Shown here in pieces: positions 1 to 56,739 of a DNA stretch of 64,000 nt. The notes below the pieces were generated by a model. That model saw only the letters and a program-made list of their open reading frames with translations, was not told the DNA's origin and did not search any database. Position 1 is the stretch's first letter, and each line of letters begins with the position of its first letter. This DNA comes from an uncultured Gammaproteobacteria bacterium (GTDB lineage: Bacteria; Patescibacteriota; Patescibacteriia; Magasanikbacterales; UBA922): positions 866,709 through 930,708 of the forward strand of contig OZ246405.1 of assembly GCA_965231005.1 (NCBI GenBank), given 5' to 3'. The translations under genes were made by a program, and so were the position numbers.

Positions 1-431
1 AGCCACAGGGAACAGTATGTCCAGATTCCAATTCGAGTCCACTTGTTCATGGTTTCCCCCCTTGTTGAATTGTGCCCATCAGAAGGGCGACGTTGTTGTT
101 GTCACCCCTGAGATTGGGAGAGTTGATTTCACAAGGCAAAAACACCTCTCCTAATCTCAGAAAATTTTCAGTGGATTTGTTTTAATTTATCTCTTATTTT
201 AGCCTAATATAAACGAAGTAGTATAGCATAAAAAAGGCCTTTTGTCAAGATTATAGCACAATTTCTTTAATATTTGCTTAAATAAGCCTAAAATAGACGG
301 ATTGTCCAGATCTTCCTTTATTTGGTACAATATAGGAAATTGGAAACTAGAAATTGGAAATTGGGGAATAAAATTTTCATTTTAGCTATAAACCCCTGAT
401 TTCTGATTTCCAATTTCTAATTTCTACACTT

Positions 432-968
432 ATGAAAAAACCTCTCATTCTTATCATTTTAGGTACAGCACGAATTGGTAGACAGTCAGAGCATGCTGCG
501 AAGTACCTTCTTTCAACGCTAAAAAAGAAATTTGCCAAAGCTCAGTTTAAGCTTGTGGACGTAAAAGATTTTGTTGGTAATAGAACCATTCCATCTTGGG
601 CAGATCCATATCATAAAACAGACACATGGAGAAAGCTTGCAAAAAAAGCAGATGGATTTATTGTGGTAACACCAGAGTACAATAGGGGATATCCAGGTGA
701 ATTGAAAATATTGCTGGATATGGCGTATACTGATGAGTACGGTGAAAAGCCTGCTGTTATTTCTACTGTTTCTGGAGCCAGCCATGGTGGGACAAATGTT
801 GAGCAGCATATTCTTCCAGTTCTCAGAATTATTGGTATGGAAGTATTGCGCAGTAAAATTGCATTTCCAAATGTAAAAGAATTGTTTGAAAAAGATAAAA
901 AGGAAATTGACAAAGCAATGAAAGAGCGAGTAGAAAAAGTGGGAAAAGCATTGCTTGCTAAAATATAA
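432..968 (+). CDS. NAD(P)H-dependent FMN reductase-like flavoprotein (flavodoxin fold)
   Basis: 178-aa ORF; N-terminal LILGTAR motif and TPEYNRGYPG segment typical of the NADPH-dependent FMN reductase family; no SD; ATG at 432 lies 8 nt after a long leader hairpin. Confidence 0.6.
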   Translation: MKKPLILIILGTARIGRQSEHAAKYLLSTLKKKFAKAQFKLVDVKDFVGNRTIPSWADPYHKTDTWRKLAKKADGFIVVTPEYNRGYPGELKILLDMAYTDEYGEKPAVISTVSGASHGGTNVEQHILPVLRIIGMEVLRSKIAFPNVKELFEKDKKEIDKAMKERVEKVGKALLAKI

Positions 969-973
969 AAGAG

Positions 974-3904
974 ATGCCAAAGAAATTAAACAAATCACAA
1001 CAAGATGCCGTCAATATAATTGACGGCCCTCTTTTAATTATTGCAGGAGCTGGAACAGGGAAGACTACTGTGATTACTGAAAAAATTTCACACCTTGTCA
1101 AAAGTGGAAAAGCAAAGCCAGAAGAAATTTTAGCACTCACGTTTACAGATAAGGCAGCAGAAGAAATGAAAGAGCGTGTTGATGATATGCTTAACATTGG
1201 ATATGTTGATTTGCAAATATCAACTTTTCACACCTTTTGTCAGCGTCTCCTTGAACAATTTGGCATTGACATTGGAATAAGTAATCATTTTAAACTTCTT
1301 ACAGAAACAGATGCATGGCTCTTGCTTCGACAGCACATGCTTGATCTAGATCTTGATTATTATAGACCAGCAGGTAATCCAGCAAGGCATATTCATGAAT
1401 TATTAAAACATTTTTCAAAATGTAAAGATGAATTAATTTCTCCAGCACAGTATCTTGAATATGCAGAGAATATAAAGCTTGATAAAGATGATGTTCATGG
1501 AGAGGAAAAAAGCAGACTTACTGAGATTGCAAATGCGTATCATGCATATAACCAACTTCTTTTAGATAACAATGCATTGGATTTTGGTGATTTGATGTAT
1601 TATACCGTTTCTCTTTTGGAAAAAAGAAAAAAGATTAAAGAGAATCTTCAGCAGCGGTTTAAATATATTTTGATTGATGAATTTCAAGACGTAAACTGGG
1701 CACAGTATGTCTTGATTACCTTGTTAGCAGAACATGCACAACTTACTGTTGTGGGAGATGATGATCAAAGTATCTATGCATTTCGTGGTTCAAACGTCTC
1801 TATTATTATGCGATTCAAAGAAGATTTTCCAAAAGCACAAGAAATTGTCCTAAGTGAAAATTTTCGCTCAACACAGAACATTCTTGACCTTGCATACAAA
1901 TCAATTCAAGAAAATAATCCAGATAGACTGGAGGCAAAATTTAGTATCAATAAAAAATTAACAGCGTTTAATGGGAAGTCAAAAGAGAAAAATTCAATTG
2001 TGCATCTTCATTATGCAACGCTTGACGAAGAAGTTTCAGGAGTTGTGAGTCAAATTAATTCCTTGAAAAAAAATAATCCAGATGTTACATGGGATGACAT
2101 TGCAATTCTTGCTCGAGCAAATACGCATGTAGAACCATTTATTCAAGCACTTGAGCAGTCAGGAATTCCATATGAATATCTTGCATCAAGTGGTTTATAT
2201 CGACAGAAAATTGTTCTGGATTGTTTTAATTATTTTAGAGTACTAGACAATAACAAGGAATCATCTGCAATTTATCGATTGCTTCGTCTTCCTTTTTTGA
2301 ACATGAGTGACTTTGACCTACAGCAGTTCACATCATTTTGCAAAAGAAAATCAATTTCATATGTACAAGGTCTTCGCAAAGGAGCTGAGATTGGTCTGAG
2401 CCAAGAGGGGATTGCTGCTTGTCAAAAGATTACCTCTTGGATTTCAGAGGGTATGAGAAGAGAGAGATATGAGAAACCAAGTGTTGTCTTGTACACCTTT
2501 TTGGAGGAAAGTGGATACCTTTCATATCTGACGCATGAGGAGAATCAAGGAAACACAGATGCAATGCGAGAGATTTTATTTTTAAAACAATTTTTTGATT
2601 TTATATCTGCATATGAAAAGGCTGTACCAGATGCACATGTTAGAAGTTTTGTAGAGCATTATACTGCGATTCTCGATTCTGGAGATGCAGGAGGATTGCA
2701 TCAGCCAACCGAAACACGTGATTCTGTAAATATTATGACTGTTCATGGATCAAAAGGATTAGAATTCAAATATGTGTTTCTTATCAACATGGTTGAAGAA
2801 AGGTTTCCGACACGTCGAAAAGGAAAGGGGATAGAAGTTCCAATTGAGCTTATTCATGAACAGCCACCAGAAGGAGACATTCATTATCAAGAAGAAAGAA
2901 GATTGTTTTATGTTGGATTAACACGTGCAAAAGAACAATTATTTTTGACAAGTGCAGATAATTATGGTGGAGTAAGAAAGAAAAAGCTTTCTCGTTTTCT
3001 TGCTGAAATTGGATATGATACAAATTGTGTTAAAGAAGCTGAAAAATCTTTGCTGACTTCTAAAAAAGAAACCAAGTCAGATAGGGGAGCTGTTGAATAT
3101 GATATTCCTAAAAAGTTTTCTTTCTCACAACTAAAGATGTATGAAATTTGTCCATACAAATATAAATTGGCTCATATTTTAAAACTCCCAATGAAAGGCA
3201 GTCCTCATTTTAGTTTTGGAAATACTATTCATAATACGCTTCAAAAGTTTTATGAAAAAGTAAAAGAACTCAATGGATTGAAGCAGGATTCTCTTTTTGG
3301 TCTTCCAAGTGAGTCATCTGTTCAGTCAAATATTCAAGTTCCATCTCTTGATGATCTTTTGAACATGTATGAAGAGTCATGGATTGAAGACTGGTATGAA
3401 AGTAAGTGGCAAAAAGAAACATATCATAAAAAAGGGCGTGACATTCTCAAAATCTTTTATGCTGCACAAGAAGATCATTGGACAATACCAATTAGCTTGG
3501 AAGGATTTTTTAAGATAAAACTTGGAGATGATATTTTGCATGGAAGAATTGATAGAATTGATAAGCAAGAAGACGGAACACTGGAAATTATTGATTATAA
3601 AACAGGAAAAGGCAAGGAAAAACTTGCATCTGGTGATAAAGATCAATTGCTTGTATATCAAATAGCAGCAGAAACATTGCCAGAGTATAGTAATGTTGGT
3701 TCTCCTGGGAAGTTGACGTTTTATTATGTAGAGGATAATATACAAACATCGTTTATTGGAAAAAATGAAGAACTTGAAAAGCTCAAAGATAAATTGATCC
3801 AGAAGATTGAAAAAATCAAACAAGGAGATTTCAAAGCAACACCAAACAAAATCATGTGTCGCAGGTGTGACTTTCGTGATATTTGCGAATTTCGTGCAAA
3901 GTAA
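974..3904 (+). CDS. UvrD/PcrA-family SF1 helicase fused to a C-terminal Cas4/AddB-like PD-(D/E)XK nuclease with a 4-Cys Fe-S motif
   Basis: 976 aa; Walker A GAGTGKTT near the N-terminus, DEFQD motif II and VGDDDQSIY motif III; C-terminus has RIDRIDK...EIIDYKTGK (nuclease motifs II/III) plus CPYKYK and CRRCDFRDIC (C-x2-C-x5-C Fe-S signature as in Cas4/AddB). Confidence 0.8.
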   Translation: MPKKLNKSQQDAVNIIDGPLLIIAGAGTGKTTVITEKISHLVKSGKAKPEEILALTFTDKAAEEMKERVDDMLNIGYVDLQISTFHTFCQRLLEQFGIDIGISNHFKLLTETDAWLLLRQHMLDLDLDYYRPAGNPARHIHELLKHFSKCKDELISPAQYLEYAENIKLDKDDVHGEEKSRLTEIANAYHAYNQLLLDNNALDFGDLMYYTVSLLEKRKKIKENLQQRFKYILIDEFQDVNWAQYVLITLLAEHAQLTVVGDDDQSIYAFRGSNVSIIMRFKEDFPKAQEIVLSENFRSTQNILDLAYKSIQENNPDRLEAKFSINKKLTAFNGKSKEKNSIVHLHYATLDEEVSGVVSQINSLKKNNPDVTWDDIAILARANTHVEPFIQALEQSGIPYEYLASSGLYRQKIVLDCFNYFRVLDNNKESSAIYRLLRLPFLNMSDFDLQQFTSFCKRKSISYVQGLRKGAEIGLSQEGIAACQKITSWISEGMRRERYEKPSVVLYTFLEESGYLSYLTHEENQGNTDAMREILFLKQFFDFISAYEKAVPDAHVRSFVEHYTAILDSGDAGGLHQPTETRDSVNIMTVHGSKGLEFKYVFLINMVEERFPTRRKGKGIEVPIELIHEQPPEGDIHYQEERRLFYVGLTRAKEQLFLTSADNYGGVRKKKLSRFLAEIGYDTNCVKEAEKSLLTSKKETKSDRGAVEYDIPKKFSFSQLKMYEICPYKYKLAHILKLPMKGSPHFSFGNTIHNTLQKFYEKVKELNGLKQDSLFGLPSESSVQSNIQVPSLDDLLNMYEESWIEDWYESKWQKETYHKKGRDILKIFYAAQEDHWTIPISLEGFFKIKLGDDILHGRIDRIDKQEDGTLEIIDYKTGKGKEKLASGDKDQLLVYQIAAETLPEYSNVGSPGKLTFYYVEDNIQTSFIGKNEELEKLKDKLIQKIEKIKQGDFKATPNKIMCRRCDFRDICEFRAK

Positions 3905-3990
3905 TATATACTAAGAATTAAGTATTGAGATTAAGTATTACGGCAATATATTTTTTTAATTTCAATTCTTAATTTTAATAATATTTTGTT

Positions 3991-4290
3991 ATGTCATCTT
4001 TTTCACCGATTGGTGATACAATTAACAAAAAAGGTAGTAGTTCTGATCTTACAAAGCAACTAGAAACAGGTGCAGTTCTTGACGCGGCAAAAGAGGTGTT
4101 TCAAGAACTTTTTTCGCCAGACTTAGCAGCACATGCAAACCCACAATATCTTAAAAATAGAACCCTTACTGTTAGTTGTACAAGCTCTGCTTTAGCACAA
4201 GAAATTAGGCTAAATCAAGCAAGAATTGTAGAAGGAATCAACGAAAAGCTTGGCAAAAAAGAGGTTGATAGAATACGATATCTGGCATAA
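3991..4290 (+). CDS. DUF721/DciA-like small protein (helicase-operon partner)
   Basis: 99 aa; C-terminal segment LTVSCTSSALAQEIRLNQARIVEGINEKLG...VDRIRY resembles the DUF721 (DciA) family pattern; weak, motif-level only. Confidence 0.4.
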   Translation: MSSFSPIGDTINKKGSSSDLTKQLETGAVLDAAKEVFQELFSPDLAAHANPQYLKNRTLTVSCTSSALAQEIRLNQARIVEGINEKLGKKEVDRIRYLA

Positions 4291-4334
4291 GAGTACAAGC
4301 CTTGAAAGAAAGAGGGGAATACTATAGAATAAAG

Positions 4335-4356
4335 GTAGCCTAGGGCTACTTTTTTG
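4335..4356 (+). terminator. Intrinsic terminator (GTAGCC-TAG-GGCTAC stem followed by TTTTTT)
   Basis: Perfect 6-bp stem, 3-nt loop, then a T6 run directly after the 3991-4290 ORF. Confidence 0.5.
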
Positions 4357-4379
4357 CTCTGGTTATATCTTGTAATACT

Positions 4380-4784
4380 ATGACACTAAGACAATATCTC
4401 ACAGTCATGGCAGTGGCAACAATCATGTGTTGGATTTCTTGGATTGTTGTTATTCTTAATATTGATCCATTTACTTCTGCAGCTCTAGGATTTATCTTTT
4501 TTTACACAAGTCTATTCTTGTCACTCATTGGAACAATTTCACTTATGTCATTTTTCTTATATTCTCGTTTTTCAAGCCAACAATTGCCAATGTTCAGATA
4601 TGTGAAAAAGAGTTTTTCAAATGCGCTATTCTTTTCAGTCGTTACCATTAGTCTTTTGTACTTGCAAGCAGCGGGTCTTTTGCATTTCTGGAATTTCACT
4701 GTGTTCCTTTTGGTTGTTGCTCTTGTTATTTCGTTTTCAATATCAACAAAACACTCCCCACAAAGTCAAGATTCATTTTTATAA
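4380..4784 (+). CDS. Hypothetical integral membrane protein (about 4 TM segments)
   Basis: 134 aa dominated by hydrophobic stretches; no recognisable motif. Confidence 0.4.
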   Translation: MTLRQYLTVMAVATIMCWISWIVVILNIDPFTSAALGFIFFYTSLFLSLIGTISLMSFFLYSRFSSQQLPMFRYVKKSFSNALFFSVVTISLLYLQAAGLLHFWNFTVFLLVVALVISFSISTKHSPQSQDSFL

Positions 4785-4790
4785 ATTTTT

Positions 4791-6041
4791 ATGCGTCAGT
4801 CTAGATTATTTACCAAAACATTAAAAAATGCACCTAAAGAAGAAGTGAGTATCAATGCTCAGTTCCTCATTCGTGGTGGATTTATTGAAAAAACAGGAGC
4901 AGGTATTTATACATATCTTCCTCTTGGAAAGAGAGTTCTTTCAAAGATTGAGACTATTATAAGACAAGAAATGGATGCTATTGATGGACAAGAGATTCTT
5001 ATGCCAGCACTCCATCCAAAAGAATATTGGGATAAGACAGGTCGCTGGGAAAGTTTTGGTGCATTGTTCAAATTGATAGGTCATGGTGACAAGGATTTTG
5101 CATTGGGTGCAACACATGAAGAGATCGTCACACCAACTGCGCAAAAATTTATTTTTTCATACAAAGACATGCCAAAATCTGTGTATCAGATTCAGACAAA
5201 ATTTAGAAATGAACCTCGTGCAAAATCTGGAGTGTTGCGTGGGAGAGAATTTTCAATGAAAGATATGTATTCTTTCCATACTGACCAGGAAAATGTGGAT
5301 ACATACTATGATGTTGTTGCAGAAGCCTATGAAAAAGTCTATGTACGATGTGGCATTGGTGAGCAAACACTCATGACCTATGCATCTGGAGGTGCCTTTT
5401 CAAAATATTCACATGAATTTCAAACACTTTCAGAAACAGGAGAAGACACTATTTTTGTCTGTGAAAGTTGTAAAAAAGCAGTGAATCAAGAAATTCTTGA
5501 AGAAGTAAAGCAGTCTTGCCCTGAATGTGGAAATAATTCTCTTCAAGAAAAGAATGCTATTGAGGTAGGGAATATTTTTAAATTGGGAACACGGTTTAGT
5601 GACGCATTCAAATTTACATACGCTTCTGAGGAAGGCGCAGAAAAACCTGTCCACATGGCGTGTTTTGGTCTTGGTCCATCACGTGTTATGGGAACTATTG
5701 TTGAAGTTCATCATGATGAAAACGGAATTATTTGGCCGCAAGAAGTCGCACCCTATCATGTGCATCTTGTTTCTTTGTGCAAAGATGAAAAAGATGTAGA
5801 AAAAGCAGATGCATTGTATAAGAAACTAACTGAGAAAGGGATAGAAGTTCTCTATGATGATAGACCAGATGCAAGAGCAGGAGAAAAGTTCGCAGATAGT
5901 GATTTAATTGGTATTCCAACACGTCTTGTGATTAGCCCAAAAACAATTGAAAAGGATTCAGTGGAAATAAAAGAACGTACAAGTTCAGAATCATCTCTTG
6001 TATTATTAACAGATATTGCTGCGCGCCTGTCCGACGCATAA
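4791..6041 (+). CDS. proS: Prolyl-tRNA synthetase, short form lacking the editing (INS) domain, with a Cys4 zinc-ribbon insert
   Basis: 416 aa; N-terminus MRQSRLFTKTLKNAPKE...YTYLPLG and class II motifs (FRNEPR, GREFSMKDMYSF) match ProRS; CESCKK...CPECG insert; C-terminal anticodon-binding domain. Confidence 0.85.
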   Translation: MRQSRLFTKTLKNAPKEEVSINAQFLIRGGFIEKTGAGIYTYLPLGKRVLSKIETIIRQEMDAIDGQEILMPALHPKEYWDKTGRWESFGALFKLIGHGDKDFALGATHEEIVTPTAQKFIFSYKDMPKSVYQIQTKFRNEPRAKSGVLRGREFSMKDMYSFHTDQENVDTYYDVVAEAYEKVYVRCGIGEQTLMTYASGGAFSKYSHEFQTLSETGEDTIFVCESCKKAVNQEILEEVKQSCPECGNNSLQEKNAIEVGNIFKLGTRFSDAFKFTYASEEGAEKPVHMACFGLGPSRVMGTIVEVHHDENGIIWPQEVAPYHVHLVSLCKDEKDVEKADALYKKLTEKGIEVLYDDRPDARAGEKFADSDLIGIPTRLVISPKTIEKDSVEIKERTSSESSLVLLTDIAARLSDA

Positions 6042-6049
6042 AAGCAACT

Positions 6050-7093
6050 ATGTTAGGAAAATTATTTGGAAAATTTGGAAAAGACATTGGTATTGACCTT
6101 GGAACTGCAAACACACTTGTGTATGTAAAAGATAAGGGGATTGTTATCAATGAATCAACTGTTGTTGCCATTAACAACAAAACCCAGCAAATACTTGCAG
6201 TCGGATATGAGGCAAAAAACATGCTTGGAAAAACGCCTCCACATATTACAGTTACCAGACCACTTAGTGGCGGAATTGTTTCAGATTATGAAGTGACTGA
6301 AAAAATGTTGAAGTACTTTATTGATAAAGTATTTGAAGGTGGTGTGAGTGTTATGAGTCGCCCACGTATTATTATTTCTGTTCCATTAGAAGTTACAGAA
6401 GTTGAAATTAAAGCTGTTGAAGATGCTGCTGTTGCTGCTGGAGCTCGGGAAGTGTTTATTGTGCAAGAACCAATGGTTGCGGCTATTGGTGCTCGCATGC
6501 CAATAAAAGATCCTGTGGGAAACATGATTGTAGATATTGGTGGTGGAAACACAGAAGTTGCTGTTATTTCTCTTAGCGGAGTTGTTATTTGGAAATCGAC
6601 AACTGTTGGTGGAGATGAAATGAATAGAAATATCATGCAGTATGCAAAGGAAGTATTCAATCTTTTTGTTGGTGAAAGACATGCAGAGCAAATTAAAATA
6701 AAAATAGGTTCAGCCATTGACACAGGAGAGCCAATGCAATTTCCAATGCGTGGAAGAGATGTTATTACAGGTCTTCCAAAGGAAGTTATGGTCACAGATG
6801 CTGAAATTAGAGAAGCACTAGAGCGATCTGTCCATGCGATTGCAGATTTAGTAAAAATGACTCTAGAGGTAACACCACCAGAATTGACTGCAGATATTCA
6901 TGAGAGGGGATTGCTTCTCGCAGGGGGTGGATCCCTGCTTCGAGGAATTGATACGGTTATTTCTGCAGCAGCAGAAGTCCCTGTCAGAATAGCTGATGAT
7001 CCATTGACAGCGGTTGTAAGAGGCACAGGAATTCTTTTAGAAGATGATGAACTGCGTGAAGAAGTTGTTCTTCCTTCTGCAAGAGTCAACTAA
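6050..7093 (+). CDS. mreB: Rod shape-determining protein MreB (actin homologue)
   Basis: 347 aa; IGIDLGTANT phosphate-1 motif, DIGGGNTEVAV and LAGGGSLLRG motifs. Confidence 0.9.
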   Translation: MLGKLFGKFGKDIGIDLGTANTLVYVKDKGIVINESTVVAINNKTQQILAVGYEAKNMLGKTPPHITVTRPLSGGIVSDYEVTEKMLKYFIDKVFEGGVSVMSRPRIIISVPLEVTEVEIKAVEDAAVAAGAREVFIVQEPMVAAIGARMPIKDPVGNMIVDIGGGNTEVAVISLSGVVIWKSTTVGGDEMNRNIMQYAKEVFNLFVGERHAEQIKIKIGSAIDTGEPMQFPMRGRDVITGLPKEVMVTDAEIREALERSVHAIADLVKMTLEVTPPELTADIHERGLLLAGGGSLLRGIDTVISAAAEVPVRIADDPLTAVVRGTGILLEDDELREEVVLPSARVN

Positions 7094-7116
7094 CGCTAAA
7101 CAAGATGTAGAGAAAT

Positions 7117-7920
7117 ATGCGTCGTCAAGCAAAAACAATATTTTCAATTACAATGGTCATCATTACGACCATTGTATTTCATTATGTTGGATTTTTAGAT
7201 CCAATAGAACGTGCTGCACAGCACCTTATTACGCCTGGTTCGAAAATAGTATATGAATGGGGGGTTGAACTTGGTGGAGAAATAGAAACGTTTACATCGG
7301 TAACCCAATTGGAAGACGCGTATGTTCAACTAAAAAAAATGTATACAGCTGCCCTAGTAGAAAAAGGAAAGTCTGAAATGCTTGAGCAAGAAAATCGTTC
7401 ACTAAGAGAACAACTAAATTTTTTCAAGACGCATGATATTGAACATATTGGTGCAGAAGTTATCGGAAAAAATATTGACCCAATTGGAAGCAGTATAATT
7501 ATTGATCAAGGGAGTAGGAGTGGTGTGTCAATTGGTAATCCAGTCATCGTAGAAGATGGTGTATTTGTTGGAAAGATTGCAAGAACTGAAGAAGACTTTT
7601 CAATTGTTAGACTTATTAGTGATACACAAAGCAAAATCGCATCAACACTGCTGAATTATGACAAAAGTATTGGACTTGTTGAAGGAGGATATGGAATTAG
7701 TGTTCGCATGAGTTTTATTCCACAAAATGAAGAGATTCAAATTGGGGATATTGTTATGACATCTGGTTTAGAAGAGGGAGTTCCATATGGTTTGCTTATT
7801 GGCACTATTGAATCGGTTGAAAAAGAACTTTATCAACCCTTTCAAAGAGCCATTGTGCAAAGTCCTATCAATTTAGAAAAGATTCGGGTAGTATCTGTGC
7901 TTGTTGATAAAAATATATGA
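7117..7920 (+). CDS. mreC: Rod shape-determining protein MreC
   Basis: 267 aa; N-terminal TM, coiled-coil (LEQENRSLREQLNFF), C-terminal beta domain with GSRSGVSIGNPVI-like segment; position between mreB and mreD. Confidence 0.75.
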   Translation: MRRQAKTIFSITMVIITTIVFHYVGFLDPIERAAQHLITPGSKIVYEWGVELGGEIETFTSVTQLEDAYVQLKKMYTAALVEKGKSEMLEQENRSLREQLNFFKTHDIEHIGAEVIGKNIDPIGSSIIIDQGSRSGVSIGNPVIVEDGVFVGKIARTEEDFSIVRLISDTQSKIASTLLNYDKSIGLVEGGYGISVRMSFIPQNEEIQIGDIVMTSGLEEGVPYGLLIGTIESVEKELYQPFQRAIVQSPINLEKIRVVSVLVDKNI

Positions 7921-8450
7921 AATATATAATGCGCACAATTGGTCTTATCGCTATTATTTTTTTTATTGTAATAATGAATCTTGCCGCGTCATATATATTG
8001 CCGTATCCTTTTTCAAAAATGAATATTTTATTCGTATTACTTCTCTTATTCCTTTTTTGGCGTGAGTCTGGAAAAGTAGTGTGGCTTTCGTTTTTTACGC
8101 ACATTATTATAGAATTTTATGCGCTCACACCATTTGGAATCATTTTATTCTCAGGGACAATAAGTATGCTATTTACATACTGGATATACCAAAATATTTT
8201 TACAAATAAATCAATTTACTCTGTGTTAGCACTTTCAATATTTGCAGTTATTATATACAGATTTTTTTATATGTTTTTATTGTTCCTATTCAACTTTTTT
8301 TCTGGGAGCAGTGAATCCATACCCCTCTTGATGACTATGCAAACATTTGGGTGGGAGATTCTTTTTACAGTCCTTTCTGTTTCAACCGTTTACCTTTTTG
8401 CAACACAAATATCCAAGCCATTTACACGTCTGCGTCGGCGAGTGCTATAA
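7917..8450 (+). CDS. mreD: Rod shape-determining protein MreD (polytopic membrane protein)
   Basis: 177-aa hydrophobic ORF overlapping the mreC stop by 4 nt and preceding PBP2, as in the mreBCD-mrdA arrangement. Confidence 0.55.
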   Translation: MKYIMRTIGLIAIIFFIVIMNLAASYILPYPFSKMNILFVLLLLFLFWRESGKVVWLSFFTHIIIEFYALTPFGIILFSGTISMLFTYWIYQNIFTNKSIYSVLALSIFAVIIYRFFYMFLLFLFNFFSGSSESIPLLMTMQTFGWEILFTVLSVSTVYLFATQISKPFTRLRRRVL

Positions 8451-8456
8451 TTTTCT

Positions 8457-10442
8457 ATGAAGGAAAAAAAGAACAATAATATATTTGTTGACATTGACAT
8501 GTTGACAGGTGACTATGGGAGCACCTCGCATTCAACATCTTGGGTTGAAGAGTCATTTCAATTTTCTACAACAGCTGGAAAACAAGTGGCTTTGCCAAAT
8601 ACTAGTCAACATATTGGTATAAGTTTTTCACAAAAAAAATCATCTTTGTTTTTATGGTTTTTGGCTACAATGTTCTTTTTTCTCCTTGCATGGATCGTAC
8701 ATGTTCAGCTTGTACAAGGAAGCTCCTATCTGAGTGCTGCAGAATCAAATAGAAAAAGAACATTACCAATTCCATCTGAACGGGGATATATTTTAGACAG
8801 AAATGGAATAAAATTAACGGAAAATATCCCTAATTTCTCACTTGCACTTGTTCCTCAAGATTTACCTCGTGATGTTATTAGACGAGAACAAGTTATTCGA
8901 CGTCTTTCAGAATTGACAAGCCAAAATACAACAGAGATTCGTGCAGTTTTGGAGAGGTATGGAAACTATAGTTATGAATCCATTGTAATCCAAGAAGGAC
9001 TTGATTATGAGACAGCATTGCTCATACAGATTGCAGCTGCAGATTTGCCTGGGATACATATTCAGCGGGGAAGTAAGCGACTTTATCTGACAGATTTTCC
9101 TGATACAGGGGTAACCAGCTCAACACTATCACTTTCTCATATTATTGGATATCAAGGGAAACTTTCTCCAGAAGAACTTGATGTTGAGTATGAAAATGGG
9201 TATCTTCCTTCAGATCTTATTGGGAAAACAGGAGTTGAAAAAACATATGAGAGAGCGTTGCGCGGAACATATGGAAGACGAGAGATAGAAGTCAATGCTC
9301 GAGGGAGAGAGCAATCAGTTCTTTCTGAAAAAAGTCCTGAACCTGGAAAACATGTTGTACTTGCAATAGACATTCGAATGCAACAAAAATTAGAGCAAAT
9401 AGTAAAACATTATTTGAACACAGGAGGAAAGAAAAGAGCCGCAGCCGTTGTGTTAGATGTTCATTCAGGTCAAGTACTTGCTCTTGTGAGTGTCCCCGCA
9501 TATGACAACAACCATTTTTCAGGAGGGATCAGTGTTGATCAGTATAGAGCATATTTAAACAATGAGGATAAGCCGCTCTTTAATAGAGCTATTAGTGGTA
9601 CATATCCTTCTGGTTCAACAATTAAGCCAGCTGTTGCAGCAGCAGCGCTTCAAGAAGGAATTATCAATGCGTCTACAAGTTTTCTAAGCTCAGGTGGAGT
9701 GGCTGTGTCTCAATGGTTTTTTCCAGATTGGCTTTCCGGAGGTCATGGTATAACAAATGTAAGAAAGTCACTCGCAGACTCAGTTAATACATTTTACTAC
9801 TACATTGGTGGAGGGTATAGAGATTTTACAGGCCTTGGAGTTGATATGATTACAGCATATCTTCGATCATTTGGATTTGCAAAAGAACTAGGCATTGATT
9901 TAAATGGAGAGCAAGCAGGATTTCTCCCGAGTAAAAAATGGAAGCAAGAAGTAAAAAATGAAAGATGGTATATCGGTGACACATATAATCTCTCAATTGG
10001 TCAAGGAGATATTCTTGTTACACCACTGCAAATTGCATCAATGACAGCATCAATAGCTAATGGTGGAACATTGTATCAACCACATGTAGTAAAAGGGATT
10101 ATTCATTCTGGTTCTGAAAAAGAAGAAAAAATTAAAAAGAAGATAATAGGTGAAAACATTATTTTGCAAAAATATCTTAGGACTGTCAGGCTAGGCATGC
10201 GAGATTGTGTGGTATATGGGTCTTGCAGACGTTTGAGCCTTCTTCCTTTTTCAGCTGCTGGAAAAACAGGAACAGCACAATGGCATGCAGCCAAGGAAAA
10301 TCATGCATGGTTCACTTCTTTTGCCCCATTTGAGGATCCAAAGATTGCAGTTACTGTCCTTGTAGAAGAAGGAGAAGGAGGTTCAAAGATTGCTGCACCA
10401 ATTGCCTATGATTTTTATAAATGGTGGGGAAATTATAGATAG
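8457..10442 (+). CDS. mrdA: Penicillin-binding protein 2 (peptidoglycan D,D-transpeptidase)
   Basis: 661 aa; TM anchor; SGSTIKP (SxxK), SxN-type and AGKTGTAQ (KTG) motifs; downstream of mreBCD. Confidence 0.85.
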   Translation: MKEKKNNNIFVDIDMLTGDYGSTSHSTSWVEESFQFSTTAGKQVALPNTSQHIGISFSQKKSSLFLWFLATMFFFLLAWIVHVQLVQGSSYLSAAESNRKRTLPIPSERGYILDRNGIKLTENIPNFSLALVPQDLPRDVIRREQVIRRLSELTSQNTTEIRAVLERYGNYSYESIVIQEGLDYETALLIQIAAADLPGIHIQRGSKRLYLTDFPDTGVTSSTLSLSHIIGYQGKLSPEELDVEYENGYLPSDLIGKTGVEKTYERALRGTYGRREIEVNARGREQSVLSEKSPEPGKHVVLAIDIRMQQKLEQIVKHYLNTGGKKRAAAVVLDVHSGQVLALVSVPAYDNNHFSGGISVDQYRAYLNNEDKPLFNRAISGTYPSGSTIKPAVAAAALQEGIINASTSFLSSGGVAVSQWFFPDWLSGGHGITNVRKSLADSVNTFYYYIGGGYRDFTGLGVDMITAYLRSFGFAKELGIDLNGEQAGFLPSKKWKQEVKNERWYIGDTYNLSIGQGDILVTPLQIASMTASIANGGTLYQPHVVKGIIHSGSEKEEKIKKKIIGENIILQKYLRTVRLGMRDCVVYGSCRRLSLLPFSAAGKTGTAQWHAAKENHAWFTSFAPFEDPKIAVTVLVEEGEGGSKIAAPIAYDFYKWWGNYR

Positions 10443-10444
10443 GC

Positions 10445-10472
10445 TTGACTACTTTTTCGGCTCTGCTATACT
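10445..10472 (+). promoter_or_regulatory. Sigma-70-like promoter for greA (TTGACT, 16 nt, TATACT)
   Basis: TTGACT at 10445-10450 and TATACT at 10467-10472; greA start codon has no SD. Confidence 0.4.
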
Positions 10473-10500
10473 GACTCTTATGTATTATTGATACTATAAT

Positions 10501-10962
10501 ATGGCTAATACACAATATCTTTCTAAGGAAAAATATGATGAACTTGCTGCAGAGCGAGAGAATTTGAAAAAAGAGAAGATTCCTGCGCTTGCACAAAGAA
10601 TTGATGAGGCAAGACAAATGGGAGATCTTTCTGAAAATGCAGAATACCATGCAGCAAGAGAAGATATGGCATGGTCTCAAAGTCGAGTTAAGCAAATCGA
10701 TCTTATTTTGGATAGTTCAGAACTTATAGATGCCTCGGTGTCTTCAAGTACGGTCAATTTGGGGAGTACCATAGAAGTAAAGATAAATGGACAAAAGCGA
10801 GAGTTCATGATAGTTGGTGCTCAAGAAGCAGATCCCTCTTCAGGAAAAATATCTAATGAGTCACCGTTAGGACAAGCATTTTTAGGAAAAAAGAAAGGTG
10901 ATAAAGTAGAAGTAGAAGTTCCGGCAGGGCTCCAAGAATACAAAATAGTAAAAATTTCATAG
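10501..10962 (+). CDS. greA: Transcription elongation factor GreA
   Basis: 153 aa; N-terminal coiled-coil with MGDLSENAEYHAARED and C-terminal FKBP-like domain. Confidence 0.9.
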   Translation: MANTQYLSKEKYDELAAERENLKKEKIPALAQRIDEARQMGDLSENAEYHAAREDMAWSQSRVKQIDLILDSSELIDASVSSSTVNLGSTIEVKINGQKREFMIVGAQEADPSSGKISNESPLGQAFLGKKKGDKVEVEVPAGLQEYKIVKIS

Positions 10963-20297: not shown

Positions 20298-21320
20298 ATG
20301 GGGAAAAGACTCCTAAATCACTATAGGCTGAAACGTAAGCTAGAAACAAAGATTCGTCGTGCGCGACAAGAACTTTTAGCACCTATAGCCCCACATAAGA
20401 GCCGGCATGATTATGCATGGAGAAGAAAGAAAAGGAATCCTTATGCATATGAGCACAAGCAAAGTCCTTTAAAACAGAGGATTCAAATTGTTATTATATT
20501 ACTTTCATTTGTAACAACGCTCGGTTTTATTTTTTTTCACAAGTCATTTCATATTACCACCGTTAGTGTATCAGGATTAACTCGTCTTAGTGAGTATGAA
20601 ATATCAGATGCAGTACTTGGTTCGTTGGATTATAAAAAAGTATTTTTGTTTCCTGCAGCAAGTTTTTTTCTAACAAATGTCCATGACATAAAAGATACAC
20701 TCCATGCTCGATTTCCTGTGGAATCTGTGTTGGTAAAAAAAAGTTTTCCAAATACAATTGAAATTTTTGTTAATGAAAAGATATCAACTATTATATATGA
20801 CAATGGTCAACAATACGCATATATAGGCTTAGATGGAAAAGTTGTAGAGCCGCTTCGTATTGTTGGTGATGATGAGTGGATGAGAAAAACAGAAATTGTA
20901 ACTTCTACAAATGAGCTAGGGGAAGAGGTTGCAGATGAAAAAATCATTGAAGAATCTCACAAACCACCTGTAGCGCAAATATTGAGTGAAATGGGGGATT
21001 ACCCTATAGTCTATGTGGATGATCGAAAAGATTTGAAGGTAAATGATAATGTAATCAAGCCACAACATATGGAAGGAATTGTAGAATGGTTTAATTATCT
21101 TGAAAGAAAGACAGATATTCCAATTGGCTATATACAGATAAAGAATGAAGTGGGGGAGGGGCTTATTACAACACGAGAAGGGTGGAAAATATTTGTTACA
21201 TTTGACAAAACAGTGTCTCTTCAAGTTGAAAGACTTCAAATTATTTTAAAAGAAAAAGTAACAAGACCGAACTTTCAATATATTGATGTTCGATACGAGG
21301 GGAGAGCGTTTTGGAGATAG
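20298..21320 (+). CDS. ftsQ: Cell division protein FtsQ/DivIB-like (basic N-tail, one TM, POTRA domain)
   Basis: 340 aa; Arg/Lys-rich cytoplasmic tail, TM, then a POTRA-like segment (ITTVSVSGLTRLSEYEI...); last gene of the murF cluster. Confidence 0.5.
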   Translation: MGKRLLNHYRLKRKLETKIRRARQELLAPIAPHKSRHDYAWRRKKRNPYAYEHKQSPLKQRIQIVIILLSFVTTLGFIFFHKSFHITTVSVSGLTRLSEYEISDAVLGSLDYKKVFLFPAASFFLTNVHDIKDTLHARFPVESVLVKKSFPNTIEIFVNEKISTIIYDNGQQYAYIGLDGKVVEPLRIVGDDEWMRKTEIVTSTNELGEEVADEKIIEESHKPPVAQILSEMGDYPIVYVDDRKDLKVNDNVIKPQHMEGIVEWFNYLERKTDIPIGYIQIKNEVGEGLITTREGWKIFVTFDKTVSLQVERLQIILKEKVTRPNFQYIDVRYEGRAFWR

Positions 21321-21326
21321 GTAAAA

Positions 21327-21355
21327 AGTAAAGGCACACGGTTACGCATGCCTTA
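21327..21355. terminator. Bidirectional hairpin between convergent ftsQ and the small island gene
   Basis: AAGGCA/TGCCTT stem with a 12-nt loop, A-rich on the + side and T-rich on the - side. Confidence 0.35.
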
Positions 21356-21384
21356 CTTATGCCCTTTTGTGTCAGTTGTTCTTG

Positions 21385-21735
21385 CTAGTCGTGAGGACCA
21401 CTTGCACCAGCAGGGGCAGTCTGCGGGAACAAGTCACATTCACCTTCATCATCAAGCTTGTCATCAAAGCACTCTGTCTGAGGCAAATGGACGATTTTTC
21501 CAAGACCAAAGCCCCATCCCCACCAGACATACTTTCTGTCTTTGTTCGTGGTTCTGTTTTGATCGATTTCGCAGGCGCTGTGTCTTGCCAAGAAAATGTA
21601 GTTGTTTTGGATCCAGATGTGGAAGTTATAACACCAGCGTTTGATTGTGACTGCACGCCTACAGGGATAGGGGATAAAGCCAAACAGGTAGCAAACTTTC
21701 CACCGTCTGACAGTCTGAGTAATTTGGGTTGGCAT
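21385..21735 (-). CDS. Small (116 aa) Cys/Trp/aromatic-rich protein of unknown function in a GC-rich (~50%) island
   Basis: Canonical AGGAGG SD 8 nt upstream of the ATG at 21735, unlike most native genes here; six Cys, WWGWGFGLGK segment; the longer track ORF (to 21918) extends into AT-rich non-coding DNA. Confidence 0.5.
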   Translation of the reverse strand: MPTQITQTVRRWKVCYLFGFIPYPCRRAVTIKRWCYNFHIWIQNNYIFLARHSACEIDQNRTTNKDRKYVWWGWGFGLGKIVHLPQTECFDDKLDDEGECDLFPQTAPAGASGPHD

Positions 21736-22322
21736 AAGCACACCTCCTGTGTGTGGGTCGGGTTCAATAGTTATTGTAACCGTGTCTGATGAATTTTTTT
21801 TGAAATTAAAATAAGAGGGGAGTAAAAGAGTATATATTATGTCATTTGAGAGGATATGTACTAGTGTCGCACATTGTACCTTATGCGACATTTCTACATT
21901 AAAAAAAGCTAAACTCAATTATTTAGGCATACTCAAATATAATATTGCATAAATTTTTGTTTTAATAATATTATTAATTTTTTACATATCTTATATATGA
22001 ATATAACTTTTACATTCGAATTTTCTGTAATTTTAGGTAGATTGGCCACTACCCTATATTTTCCTAAAATAAGCCAAAAATTCAATATTTTACGACACTA
22101 CAAAAATGCGGTTCAAAAAAAGAGGTAGTAGGACATCTCTTTTTATTACAAAAATTTATGTGAAGATTATAGGACTGGATTTAAGGGAGGCAAATGGAAG
22201 TTTGATTCATGAAAATATCAAATATGACATGTTAATGAAGGGAATTTGCTCGTTTATTCAGAGTTGTTTGAAAAGTAAAAACATCATTTAACCATCCTGA
22301 ATGTTGTGCGACACAAATAAAT

Positions 22323-30369: not shown

Positions 30370-30436
30370 TTGACAATAATAAAAGAATCACGGTATTCTC
30401 TAGATGGCAATGGTGCCAAAATACTAGGAGGTCAAC

Positions 30437-30910
30437 ATGGTTGATCCAATGGAGCACGTCGTGCCCCCTATGCCATCTCCTAGCGCTACTATTGCACGCA
30501 TAGGAGATATCTCAAACGATGAGAGGGCAGCAGCCAAGAGGTTCGAAGAGATCATTCCTGAACAAATAGGGCAAGGCTGGACAGCGTACCCAATCATTGG
30601 AATCGGGCGACGAAGAAATCTCCGGCTGCACGCGAAGTTCATAAGCGAATGCTTTGGGATTGAGTATATCGCAATTAAGCGGGTAGAAGTCCACAGCGTG
30701 TGGATTCCCCCAACCATTAGCAACGGGAACCTAAGAGAATTTCAATGCAAGATAGTGCTGAAAAATCATTTTGAAACAATCTGCAAGTACCACATTGTTA
30801 CTTGCACGTCAATTTTTCAGATGGTAGTCTTTCTTGCAAAATTGCGCAGAATTCGCTTTCGGGAGAGTGGTCAGACAATGATTGGAGGTATGGAGGGACT
30901 CCAGAAATAA
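30437..30910 (+). CDS. Hypothetical protein; 5' half GC-rich (~52%) with a canonical AGGAGG SD
   Basis: 157-aa ORF framed by a TTGACA/-10-like promoter, AGGAGG 7 nt before the ATG, and a strong downstream terminator hairpin; antisense ORF also open; I could not recognise the region as a known RNA family. Confidence 0.4.
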   Translation: MVDPMEHVVPPMPSPSATIARIGDISNDERAAAKRFEEIIPEQIGQGWTAYPIIGIGRRRNLRLHAKFISECFGIEYIAIKRVEVHSVWIPPTISNGNLREFQCKIVLKNHFETICKYHIVTCTSIFQMVVFLAKLRRIRFRESGQTMIGGMEGLQK

Positions 30911-30941
30911 CGATGACGCGCAAGGGAGACGCGTCATCGTT
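30909..30941. terminator. Bidirectional terminator: 12-bp perfect GC-rich stem between convergent genes
   Basis: AACGATGACGCG, 9-nt loop, CGCGTCATCGTT; on the minus strand followed by TTATTTCT, 9 nt after the ferredoxin stop. Confidence 0.55.
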
Positions 30942-30949
30942 GGAAAATA

Positions 30950-45405: not shown

Positions 45406-45969
45406 CTAATTGGCACCGACCATATCACAGAGCCACGGACCCCACTTGCAGGTGATGTACCAAGCATCGCCACCATTTTCCCAGTTCGCGTACCAGCAAG
45501 CTTTTTGCCAAACCTTCTTTCTCCTCTGGCATTCCACACTGAATGAGAAGTGAGTCCAAGACTGGCCTTTTTTGCTTGCATAAGCTTCCTTGTACGACGA
45601 CAGATCAGTGAGCTCGAGTACGATATCCCTGTTCAAGTCTTCCTTGCGCAGTGTTGACCGAAGAGATCCTTTCGTTTGATGCACGAATGCCGCATGGACG
45701 CGAACGACATCATGATCGTTGATGTTGGCAGAGAAAAAGCCTTGCTCTCCAGTCTTCACGATGAAGTAGGGAGAATCAGGATCGTCTCCGGTCTCGATGA
45801 GCACGTCAGCATTTGCGATCGGTGCACCTTCGAACATGACCTGACCACTCAGCTGGTCGCTGGTGGGCTGCTGATCAACAGCATCGAAATCAGCAGCACA
45901 GCCGGTCATTGCGAAGGCAATGAAAAGAGTGAAAAGAAACAGTTGCTTTGAAACATATTTGAAAGACAT
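45406..45969 (-). CDS. Lipoprotein with a carboxypeptidase-regulatory-like beta-sandwich domain and a Cys/Trp-rich C-terminal tail; GC-rich (~52%) island
   Basis: Start MSFKYVSK at 45969 with AGGGAGG SD 8 nt upstream; lipobox FAMTGC; SGQVMFEGAPIANADVLIETGDD...FFSANI resembles CarboxypepD_reg/transthyretin-like domains; tail CQRRKKVWQKACWYANWENGGDAWYITCKWGPWLC. Confidence 0.55.
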   Translation of the reverse strand: MSFKYVSKQLFLFTLFIAFAMTGCAADFDAVDQQPTSDQLSGQVMFEGAPIANADVLIETGDDPDSPYFIVKTGEQGFFSANINDHDVVRVHAAFVHQTKGSLRSTLRKEDLNRDIVLELTDLSSYKEAYASKKGQSWTHFSFSVECQRRKKVWQKACWYANWENGGDAWYITCKWGPWLCDMVGAN

Positions 45970-56427: not shown

Positions 56428-56739
56428 TTAGCCAGCAATGTTCGTGGAAGCTACTGCGACGGTCCATGCCATAATACTTGAAAAGTAAATCCAATACGCA
56501 AGATTTGTGTTTGGACTACTCCACTGGAACTCAGCAGAGGATGCATTCATTCCAACACAGGAAACCAGAAACACGGCAAGCAGAGTCGGAAGTGTTGGCA
56601 TGTCATGGTTGACCCAAACGAACAGCCCAAGGTCGATGGCTACACATGCGACCAAAAGGAGTGCCCAGAAGTGCTTGTAGAGTTGGTTTGCGACCGCGAG
56701 CAAGATTTGCCCAGACCATGAGAGAATTTCTGTGAACAT
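56428..56739 (-). CDS. Small membrane protein in a GC-rich segment with a strong AGGGAGGG SD
   Basis: Start MFTEILSW at 56739, AGGGAGGG 4 nt upstream; 3 hydrophobic helices; GC-rich terminator hairpin CCCGCC...GGCGGG at 56383-56408. Confidence 0.45.
   Translation of the reverse strand: MFTEILSWSGQILLAVANQLYKHFWALLLVACVAIDLGLFVWVNHDMPTLPTLLAVFLVSCVGMNASSAEFQWSSPNTNLAYWIYFSSIMAWTVAVASTNIAG

Follow-up and report, generated by a model that had tools for sequence, protein, structure and literature searches.

The 64,000-nt stretch of contig OZ246405.1 analysed in this study (referred to as the window, position 1 being its first letter) harbours a GC-rich island at 21340–21780, which very probably represents a minus-strand, single-gene cassette that was acquired horizontally, is complete in itself and codes for a member of a rare, unnamed family of cysteine-rich all-β proteins. 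Such a cassette would comprise AT-rich DNA 5′ of the gene, an AGGAGG ribosome-binding site (RBS), an ATG start codon at 21735, an open reading frame (ORF) of 116 codons and a hairpin terminator. Small horizontally acquired cassettes are a known kind of phenomenon; the protein family is uncharacterised.

Judging by sequence similarity, the 116-aa product (six Cys and six Trp residues) is not an orphan but a member of an undescribed, unnamed and widely scattered protein family. Used alone as query in a word-index protein search, the sequence retrieved only itself, in the form of a 177-aa public gene call. Exhaustive phmmer comparison with 1.84 billion representatives produced 18 homologues at E-values of 2e-10 to 1e-3, with alignments spanning residues 1–100 to 1–93; most homologues were 90–160 residues long, and their own first residue aligned with that of the 116-aa product. 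In two rounds of profile searching the family grew to 44 and 78 clusters, and 45 family loci were located on scanning a single genome from each species (~185,000 species genomes). The genome and viral scans used a tighter alignment (A3) and the metagenome scan used alignment A6. After de-duplication, 153 distinct sequences matched the family profile. No match for the window protein or for the family was found in the curated libraries Pfam, NCBIfam, PHROGs and PADLOC or among PDB sequences, so the absence of a recognisable family, reported by an earlier sequence-only reading of this DNA, holds for curated libraries but not for phmmer and profile searches. Curated matches were limited to C-terminal add-on domains of single members, such as BTRD1 in P0036. 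A literature search for the project accession and motif strings retrieved no papers. The hidden Markov model (HMM) and structure-prediction searches that had been proposed for this protein yielded a family of about 150 sequences and a confident all-β model.

Members of the family are typically about 90–140 residues long and are conserved from Met1, with the consensus M-P-x-x-x-T-x-T-E-x-YW-x-VCWKWG-x-IPYPCKK-x-RTVTKWCY-x-F … GCE-x-G-x-x-Y-x-W … CF … G-x-C and the short signature YW.VC…PYPC…WCY…GCE…CF…G.C. All hallmark residues (W12, C15, Y23-P24-C25, W34-C35-Y36, F38, C55-E56, Y69, W71, C89-F90, G98 and C100) are present in the window protein, whose six cysteines occupy positions conserved in the family (C15, C25, C35, C55, C89 and C100). 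The one feature missing from it is the optional fourth Cys pair, and eight residues (about 57–64) are inserted after the GCE motif. Within the window, the family HMM matched this ORF alone (E 2e-39), with no paralogue in the 64 kb.

The public gene call at this locus is 177 aa long (TTG 21918 to 21385), and its extra 61 residues were found in 0 homologues. Since every homologue aligns from the Met encoded at 21735, comparative evidence makes this ATG the true start and 116 aa the length of the product, in agreement with the strand, frame, start and six Cys of the sequence-only reading; the segment 21736–21918 is probably a noncoding 5′ untranslated leader or promoter region. Across the homologous loci, the family frame was open in 42 of 42, and the other five frames were not kept open. 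Substitutions at codon positions 1, 2 and 3 numbered 440, 450 and 1173, respectively, when summed over the Nitrobacter/Bradyrhizobium clade, and 14, 9 and 53 in a second related pair. By these sequence comparisons, the minus-strand segment from 21735 to 21385 is a genuine protein-coding gene in this frame and with this start, and not an RNA gene.

A plus-strand structured noncoding RNA of ~450 nt, with 21336–21346 and 21776–21785 pairing to close it, a T-run after it and the ORFs being incidental, was regarded as extremely improbable and is effectively refuted. This alternative draws on the perfect 10-bp inverted repeat at these positions (ACACGGTTAC/GTAACCGTGT), which encloses the gene, its Shine-Dalgarno (SD) site and the terminator, and on which the minimum-energy fold closes; GC-rich patches are also often RNA genes in AT-rich genomes. 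However, about two perfect 10-bp inverted repeats would be expected by chance per 2 kb by our own estimate (the scan listed 27 pairs), and homologues exist at the protein level at 30–55% identity, with substitutions biased towards the third codon position. Structured-RNA identity was ruled out by three approaches: Rfam covariance models gave nothing on the island at gathering score and noise only at E≤10, ARAGORN detected no tmRNA there, and folding was no better than that of shuffled sequences on either strand (z of +0.19 and −1.03 for the two strands). Conservation of the region as an RNA in relatives, considered beforehand as an outcome that would speak against a coding gene, was not observed; it is the reading frame that is conserved in the 42 homologous loci.

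Least credible of all is the possibility that the real gene is another of the open frames of the island, namely a plus-strand ORF of 140 aa (21367–21789), a plus-strand ORF of 98 aa or a minus-strand ORF of 131 aa. The 140-aa ORF outscored the other five frames in native codon usage (−0.07) and had G-rich first positions, but scoring of the frames by native codon usage is uninformative because the gene is foreign. None of these ORFs had a match in curated family libraries (no separate search against large protein databases was made), an SD site or a terminator; they were not kept open at homologous loci, and the antisense frame is open automatically.

Stop-free stretches of 98–177 codons were present in four of the six frames of the island, confirming the four open frames described from sequence inspection. 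This degree of openness was matched by one in 5000 dinucleotide-preserving shuffles of the island. Under a null judged more appropriate, in which the codons of the gene were shuffled among themselves, the +1 frame was fully open in 17% of cases, at least two extra frames in 44% and at least three extra frames in 0.8%. As the 116-codon gene contains no TTA, CTA or TCA codons, its codon-aligned antisense frame, corresponding to the 140-aa plus-strand ORF, is always stop-free. Multi-frame openness mostly reflects GC-type codon usage together with some luck, and was not a family-wide trait in the 42 homologous loci; being mostly a by-product of codon usage, the four open frames add no extra evidence.

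Composition and translation signals set the gene apart from the native genes of the window. GC content was 47.2% at 21340–21780 compared to 36.4% across the window, peaking within the island at 48.7% in a 300-nt sliding window (~99th percentile); the GC-rich island is real, but the ~50% initially ascribed to it was slightly high. The proposed compositional check identified the gene as an outlier in GC content at third codon positions (GC3), with a value of 0.53 against 0.244 ± 0.029 in native genes (n = 54, maximum 0.296; z ≈ 9.8). The AGGAGG site and the start at 21735 had both been read correctly, with the spacing between them amounting to 7 rather than 8 nt. An SD core match of at least 5 nt was found for just two of the 54 native-type ORFs, and the regions 5′ of native genes are A/T-rich, which bears out their description as SD-less. 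Three more ORFs with outlier GC3 (0.49–0.56) were found in the window, each with a GGAGG-type site 5–8 nt before ATG, bringing SD sites to 4/4 among the GC3-outlier islets versus 2/54 among native genes. The total number of AGGAGG motifs in the window was not enriched (20 observed, 14.7 expected), so the signal lies in the position of the motif and not in its number. Homologues elsewhere carry GGAGG-type sites 5–10 nt 5′ of ATG, and in most hosts the GC content of the gene differs from that of local DNA (0.39 in 0.56, 0.44 in 0.63, 0.32 in 0.42).

Collectively, the outlier GC3, the SD site shared with the islets, the patchy multi-phylum distribution of the family and the GC mismatch in other hosts argue for horizontal acquisition from an SD-using source of higher GC content, a conclusion that appears well supported at the sequence level. 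The foreign origin proposed earlier is upheld but its supposed recency is unsupported, as the closest known relative, P0060 (encoded on a 959-bp contig), shares 43% identity by BLAST and 55% in a MAFFT alignment. The abrupt change of composition within a metagenome-derived genome might also be explained by an assembly chimera or contamination, with foreign reads stitched in; we consider this highly improbable, given that the locus with the same junctions was 100% identical in three independent assemblies (one ENA, two Logan) from two sequencing runs and is also carried on a 1.23-Mb contig. No strain variation was seen at the locus among the assemblies compared.

It is also rather unlikely, though less so than a chimera, that a genuine foreign gene is carried here in silent or decaying form, as unexpressed or useless DNA on the way to being lost from this SD-less reduced genome. 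Codon usage far from native (a score of −0.15 per codon versus a native mean of +0.30) and a host that almost never uses SD sites would be compatible with such a fate, as would the search for host relatives, which yielded none showing retention: a search for sister genomes via the adjacent ftsQ-like gene found no relative in GTDB species genomes or JGI metagenomes, and a metagenome scan for the closest relatives within the family found nothing. On the other hand, the ORF is intact with every family hallmark residue, as are the SD site, the terminator and the spacer on the promoter side, and DNA of no use should soon be lost from a genome of 1.23 Mb.

The acquired cassette resembles the single-gene genomic islets known as 'morons', cassettes gained by horizontal transfer that each bring along a promoter, an RBS and a terminator. 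It likewise comprises one ORF of atypical composition with its own SD site and terminator, lies between housekeeping genes, and is accompanied in the window by three further islets of the same style. Unlike classical genomic islands, prophages and 'morons', the locus showed no integrase, tRNA target (attachment) site, phage context or significant flanking direct repeats, with the nearest tRNA being >22 kb from the island; moreover, acquired DNA usually has a lower GC content than its host, and here it has a higher one.

The family was present in at least seven phyla, with a rare and patchy distribution. The 45 loci cover Chloroflexota, Alpha- and Gammaproteobacteria, Bacteroidota, Acidobacteriota, Actinomycetota, Myxococcota and one Heimdallarchaeota metagenome-assembled genome (MAG). 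Judging by sequence, the Bradyrhizobium/Nitrobacter clade looks vertically inherited. In its members (P0046, P0048 and related sequences), the C35/C89 pair is replaced by (H/R/Q)/Y and an N-terminal MACG and a GCC doublet are gained; some end in …HGCSCV or …HGCSFV, reminiscent of a CaaX box. Copies in a Chloroflexota MAG (L010, 5995–6378) and a Pseudomonadota MAG (L011, 2214–2564) shared ~88% amino acid identity by our count, and a Methylobacter copy (L022) differed at 5 of 309 nt from that of a 55%-GC gammaproteobacterial MAG (L041). Such near-identical copies across MAGs reflect either recent transfer or binning errors. Two IMG/VR contigs carried family members. One of them (L055, positions 1–10825, IMG/VR UViG 3300040744_000401), classed as 'viral', codes for a full-length member along with a caspase-like peptidase, a K+ channel, a PBCV-specific basic adaptor domain and a staphylococcal-type nuclease; by analogy, this gene set is closer to that of giant (chlorovirus-like) viruses than to that of phages.

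AlphaFold modelling of the window protein with a 42-sequence alignment gave an all-β structure with mean pLDDT of 89.9 and pTM of 0.71, and an 88-aa member, P0018, was also modelled as all-β with the same order of strands (pLDDT 87.8). The models thus confidently predict that the family folds into a sheet of long β-hairpins with no structural relative detected: Foldseek searches against PDB and BFVD gave no match at E≤0.001 (best E 0.24–1.3, TM-scores of the top-ranked matches ≤0.3). Members start with a conserved polar M-P/A-x-Q/E… segment leading straight into strand 1.

Cysteine statistics were obtained from 147 near-full-length sequences. C15, C25, C55 and C100 were conserved in 98–99% of these, while the C35/C89 columns contained two cysteines in 102 sequences, none in 44 and a discordant pair in just one. 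Covariation was also seen for C55/C100 (r = 0.81), C15/C25 (r = 0.57) and the optional fourth pair (r = 0.74), and where C55/C100 or C15/C25 were lost, which was rare, both members of the pair tended to go together. Family members have four near-invariant cysteines plus one or two Cys pairs gained or lost together, C35/C89 being the one present here. Covariation in the alignment suggests three disulfide-type pairs (15–25, 35–89 and 55–100), which might staple the hairpins through cross-strand links. If so, the protein would be expected to work in a non-reducing setting, being released, surface-exposed or delivered into another cell, because of these putative disulfide-type pairs; there it could act as a stable binding or toxin-like module.

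The main alternative is a four-Cys metal site in a cytoplasmic protein. Zinc ribbons and other Cys4 mini-domains likewise display four near-invariant cysteines on β-hairpins, are leaderless and presumably cytoplasmic. Unlike these, the family has no CxxC knuckles, with cysteines placed 10–45 residues apart; its rare Cys losses are pairwise and do not affect the whole set, and there is no Pfam zinc-ribbon match. Gain and loss of cysteines independently in pairs favours cross-strand disulfides over one shared metal site.

Several observations weigh against the disulfide-stapled, imported-effector interpretation of the cassette. No signal peptide or lipobox was noticed by eye in the sequence of any member, which speaks against disulfides. 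Some members end in a Cys-hydrophobic-basic tail resembling a tail anchor, and such a hydrophobic C-terminal tail sits badly with disulfides because the domain would normally stay in the reducing cytoplasm. Joint loss of C35/C89 occurs mostly within one clade and may represent one or a few evolutionary events. If the ribosome of the host makes no SD pairing, the SD site is uninformative on translation. Finally, a toxin or binding role is a conjecture, as there is no functional homologue, informative operon or structural match.

No neighbour gene recurred across clades, synteny being confined to within clades; because of this lack of a conserved neighbour, the protein likely acts alone, as a stand-alone gene product, as far as genome comparison can tell. 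A broader interpretation, to which we assign a low though not negligible likelihood, would see in the family an undescribed class of all-β mini-proteins that lack a leader, are stapled by disulfides, have a new fold, spread as stand-alone genes and act as self-sufficient toxins, effectors or surface binders. Members would then be spread over many bacterial phyla and perhaps giant viruses, and in this small-genome, SD-less bacterium the gene described here would join other imported genes with SD sites in serving interaction with a host or with competitors.

Two groups of known small proteins offer partial parallels. Disulfide-rich β-proteins (cystine-knot growth-factor-like, killer-toxin-like and lactococcin 972-type) are likewise all-β, have ~100 residues and long hairpins, and share with the family pairwise-covarying cysteines and aromatic richness; the cystine-knot ligands 8end and 5cl1 were among the weakest Foldseek echoes of the window model, with no significant match. 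However, cystine knots have the topology I–IV, II–V, III–VI, whereas covariation in the family would give I–II, III–V, IV–VI, and disulfide-rich β-proteins are secreted through Sec whereas family members have no signal peptide. Leaderless (class IId) bacteriocins, too, are small, basic, Trp-rich products made without a leader, and each comes from one mobile structural gene. In contrast to the window protein, which is predicted to be all-β and is Cys-rich, they are about 45–55 residues long, α-helical and Cys-free, and their genes adjoin those of a dedicated ABC exporter or immunity protein; no transporter recurs beside the family gene.

Coordinates of the gene, its signals, its surroundings and the other GC3-outlier islets are collected in Table 1.

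Table 1 Features of the GC-rich island, its surroundings and the further islets (positions in the window)
Feature	Position	Strand	Details
Protein-coding gene	21385..21735	-	116 aa + stop, ATG 21735; from ORF list, homologues, AlphaFold, GC3
Shine-Dalgarno site	21743..21750 (AGGAGG = 21748-21743)	-	Followed by TGTGCTT (7 nt), then ATG
Intrinsic-terminator-like hairpin	21331..21354	-	30 nt past stop; AAGGCAUGCG-UAAC-CGUGUGCCUU then UACUUUUUA; from terminator scan
In-frame upstream extension	21736..21918	-	61 extra residues of the public 177-aa call from TTG 21918
AT-rich gene-free spacer	21790..22322	.	~530 bp, GC 0.21-0.30, short ORFs only
Neighbours of the island			ftsQ-like, ASCH-like and RNase T-like genes; 125-aa gene on far side from ftsQ
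Second islet	30380-30945	+	157-aa ORF 30437-30910, GC3 0.49 (z 8.5), between clpB and ferredoxin gene
Third islet	45406-45969	-	187-aa lipoprotein-like protein, GC3 0.56 (z 10.8)
Fourth islet	56428-56738	-	Membrane-protein-like ORF, about 103 aa, GC3 0.53

On the minus strand, all 10 bp of the terminator-like hairpin (21354–21331) pair, two of them as G–U, with a fold energy of −15.9 kcal/mol (z −4.3); on the plus strand, the same positions form C–A mismatches and the energy is −12.7 kcal/mol. The ftsQ-like gene, which is convergent with this one and has its end at 21320, may share the hairpin as a terminator. At the opposite end, the spacer is unusually long within an otherwise tightly packed genome. 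It presumably contains the promoter of the gene, although no particular promoter could be pinpointed there, and may be part of the acquired segment. At its ends, the spacer carries two perfect copies of TGTGCGACAC in inverted orientation (21864–21873 on the minus strand and 22305–22314 on the plus strand); no other perfect copies occur in the 64 kb, but two degenerate ones are found within the spacer. This inverted pair could represent an operator, an insertion scar or a chance occurrence. As candidate transposition scars, both the TGTGCGACAC pair and the inverted repeat flanking the island (21336–21346/21776–21785) were rejected, being within chance expectation.

The GC-rich islands of the window were unrelated to one another by blastn or tblastx. 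The second islet is built like the one at 21340–21780, with a TTGACA-type promoter-like box, an AGGAGG site 5 nt before ATG 30437 and a perfect hairpin (aacgatgacgcg…cgcgtcatcgtt) after the ORF; no Rfam match was found at 30380–30945. The protein of the third islet, for which the listed 208-aa ORF begins too early, has a signal peptide, the lipobox AMTGC and a Cys/Trp-rich C-terminus, and shows no sequence relation to the family of the 21385–21735 gene; AAGGGAGGG lies 8 nt before its ATG, with a TATAAT box farther 5′. In the fourth islet, GGGAGGG is placed 5 nt before an internal ATG.

Outside the window, single family loci were observed next to a Kiwa defence neighbourhood, in a mobile element with a polyvalent protein and beside a DsbA-like gene, none of these contexts recurring; other loci were in plain housekeeping regions. 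The gene for P0023 (L059, 8001–16291; L060, 532–8822) lies directly 5′ of a σ54-type AAA activator in one lineage only, beyond which there is an extracellular contractile injection system (eCIS) cluster (sheath, tube, baseplate, Pvc16). At three Bacteroidota loci (L005, 9488–9919; L013, 5576–5959; L014, 5594–5983), the family gene is adjoined by the gene for a 127–143-aa membrane protein with no Pfam match, which ends 12–42 nt 5′ of the family gene in two of the three and has a LuxR-type response regulator nearby. This membrane protein may be a clade-specific partner and has no counterpart in the window.

With respect to the host, these findings mean that an SD-less, AT-rich organism with a 1.2-Mb genome retains small imported genes with the GC content and RBSs of their donors. 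The retained GC content and RBSs make a clean natural marker of transfer, and imported SD genes provide a test of whether the ribosomes of an SD-less organism still use SD sites. With respect to the protein, a confident model and about 150 sequences are added for a family absent from curated databases, which at present amounts to a well-characterised 'conserved hypothetical'. Its mix of properties is unusual, combining the lack of a leader peptide with covarying Cys pairs and single-gene mobility across phyla, and families of this kind may include new toxins, effectors or binding scaffolds.

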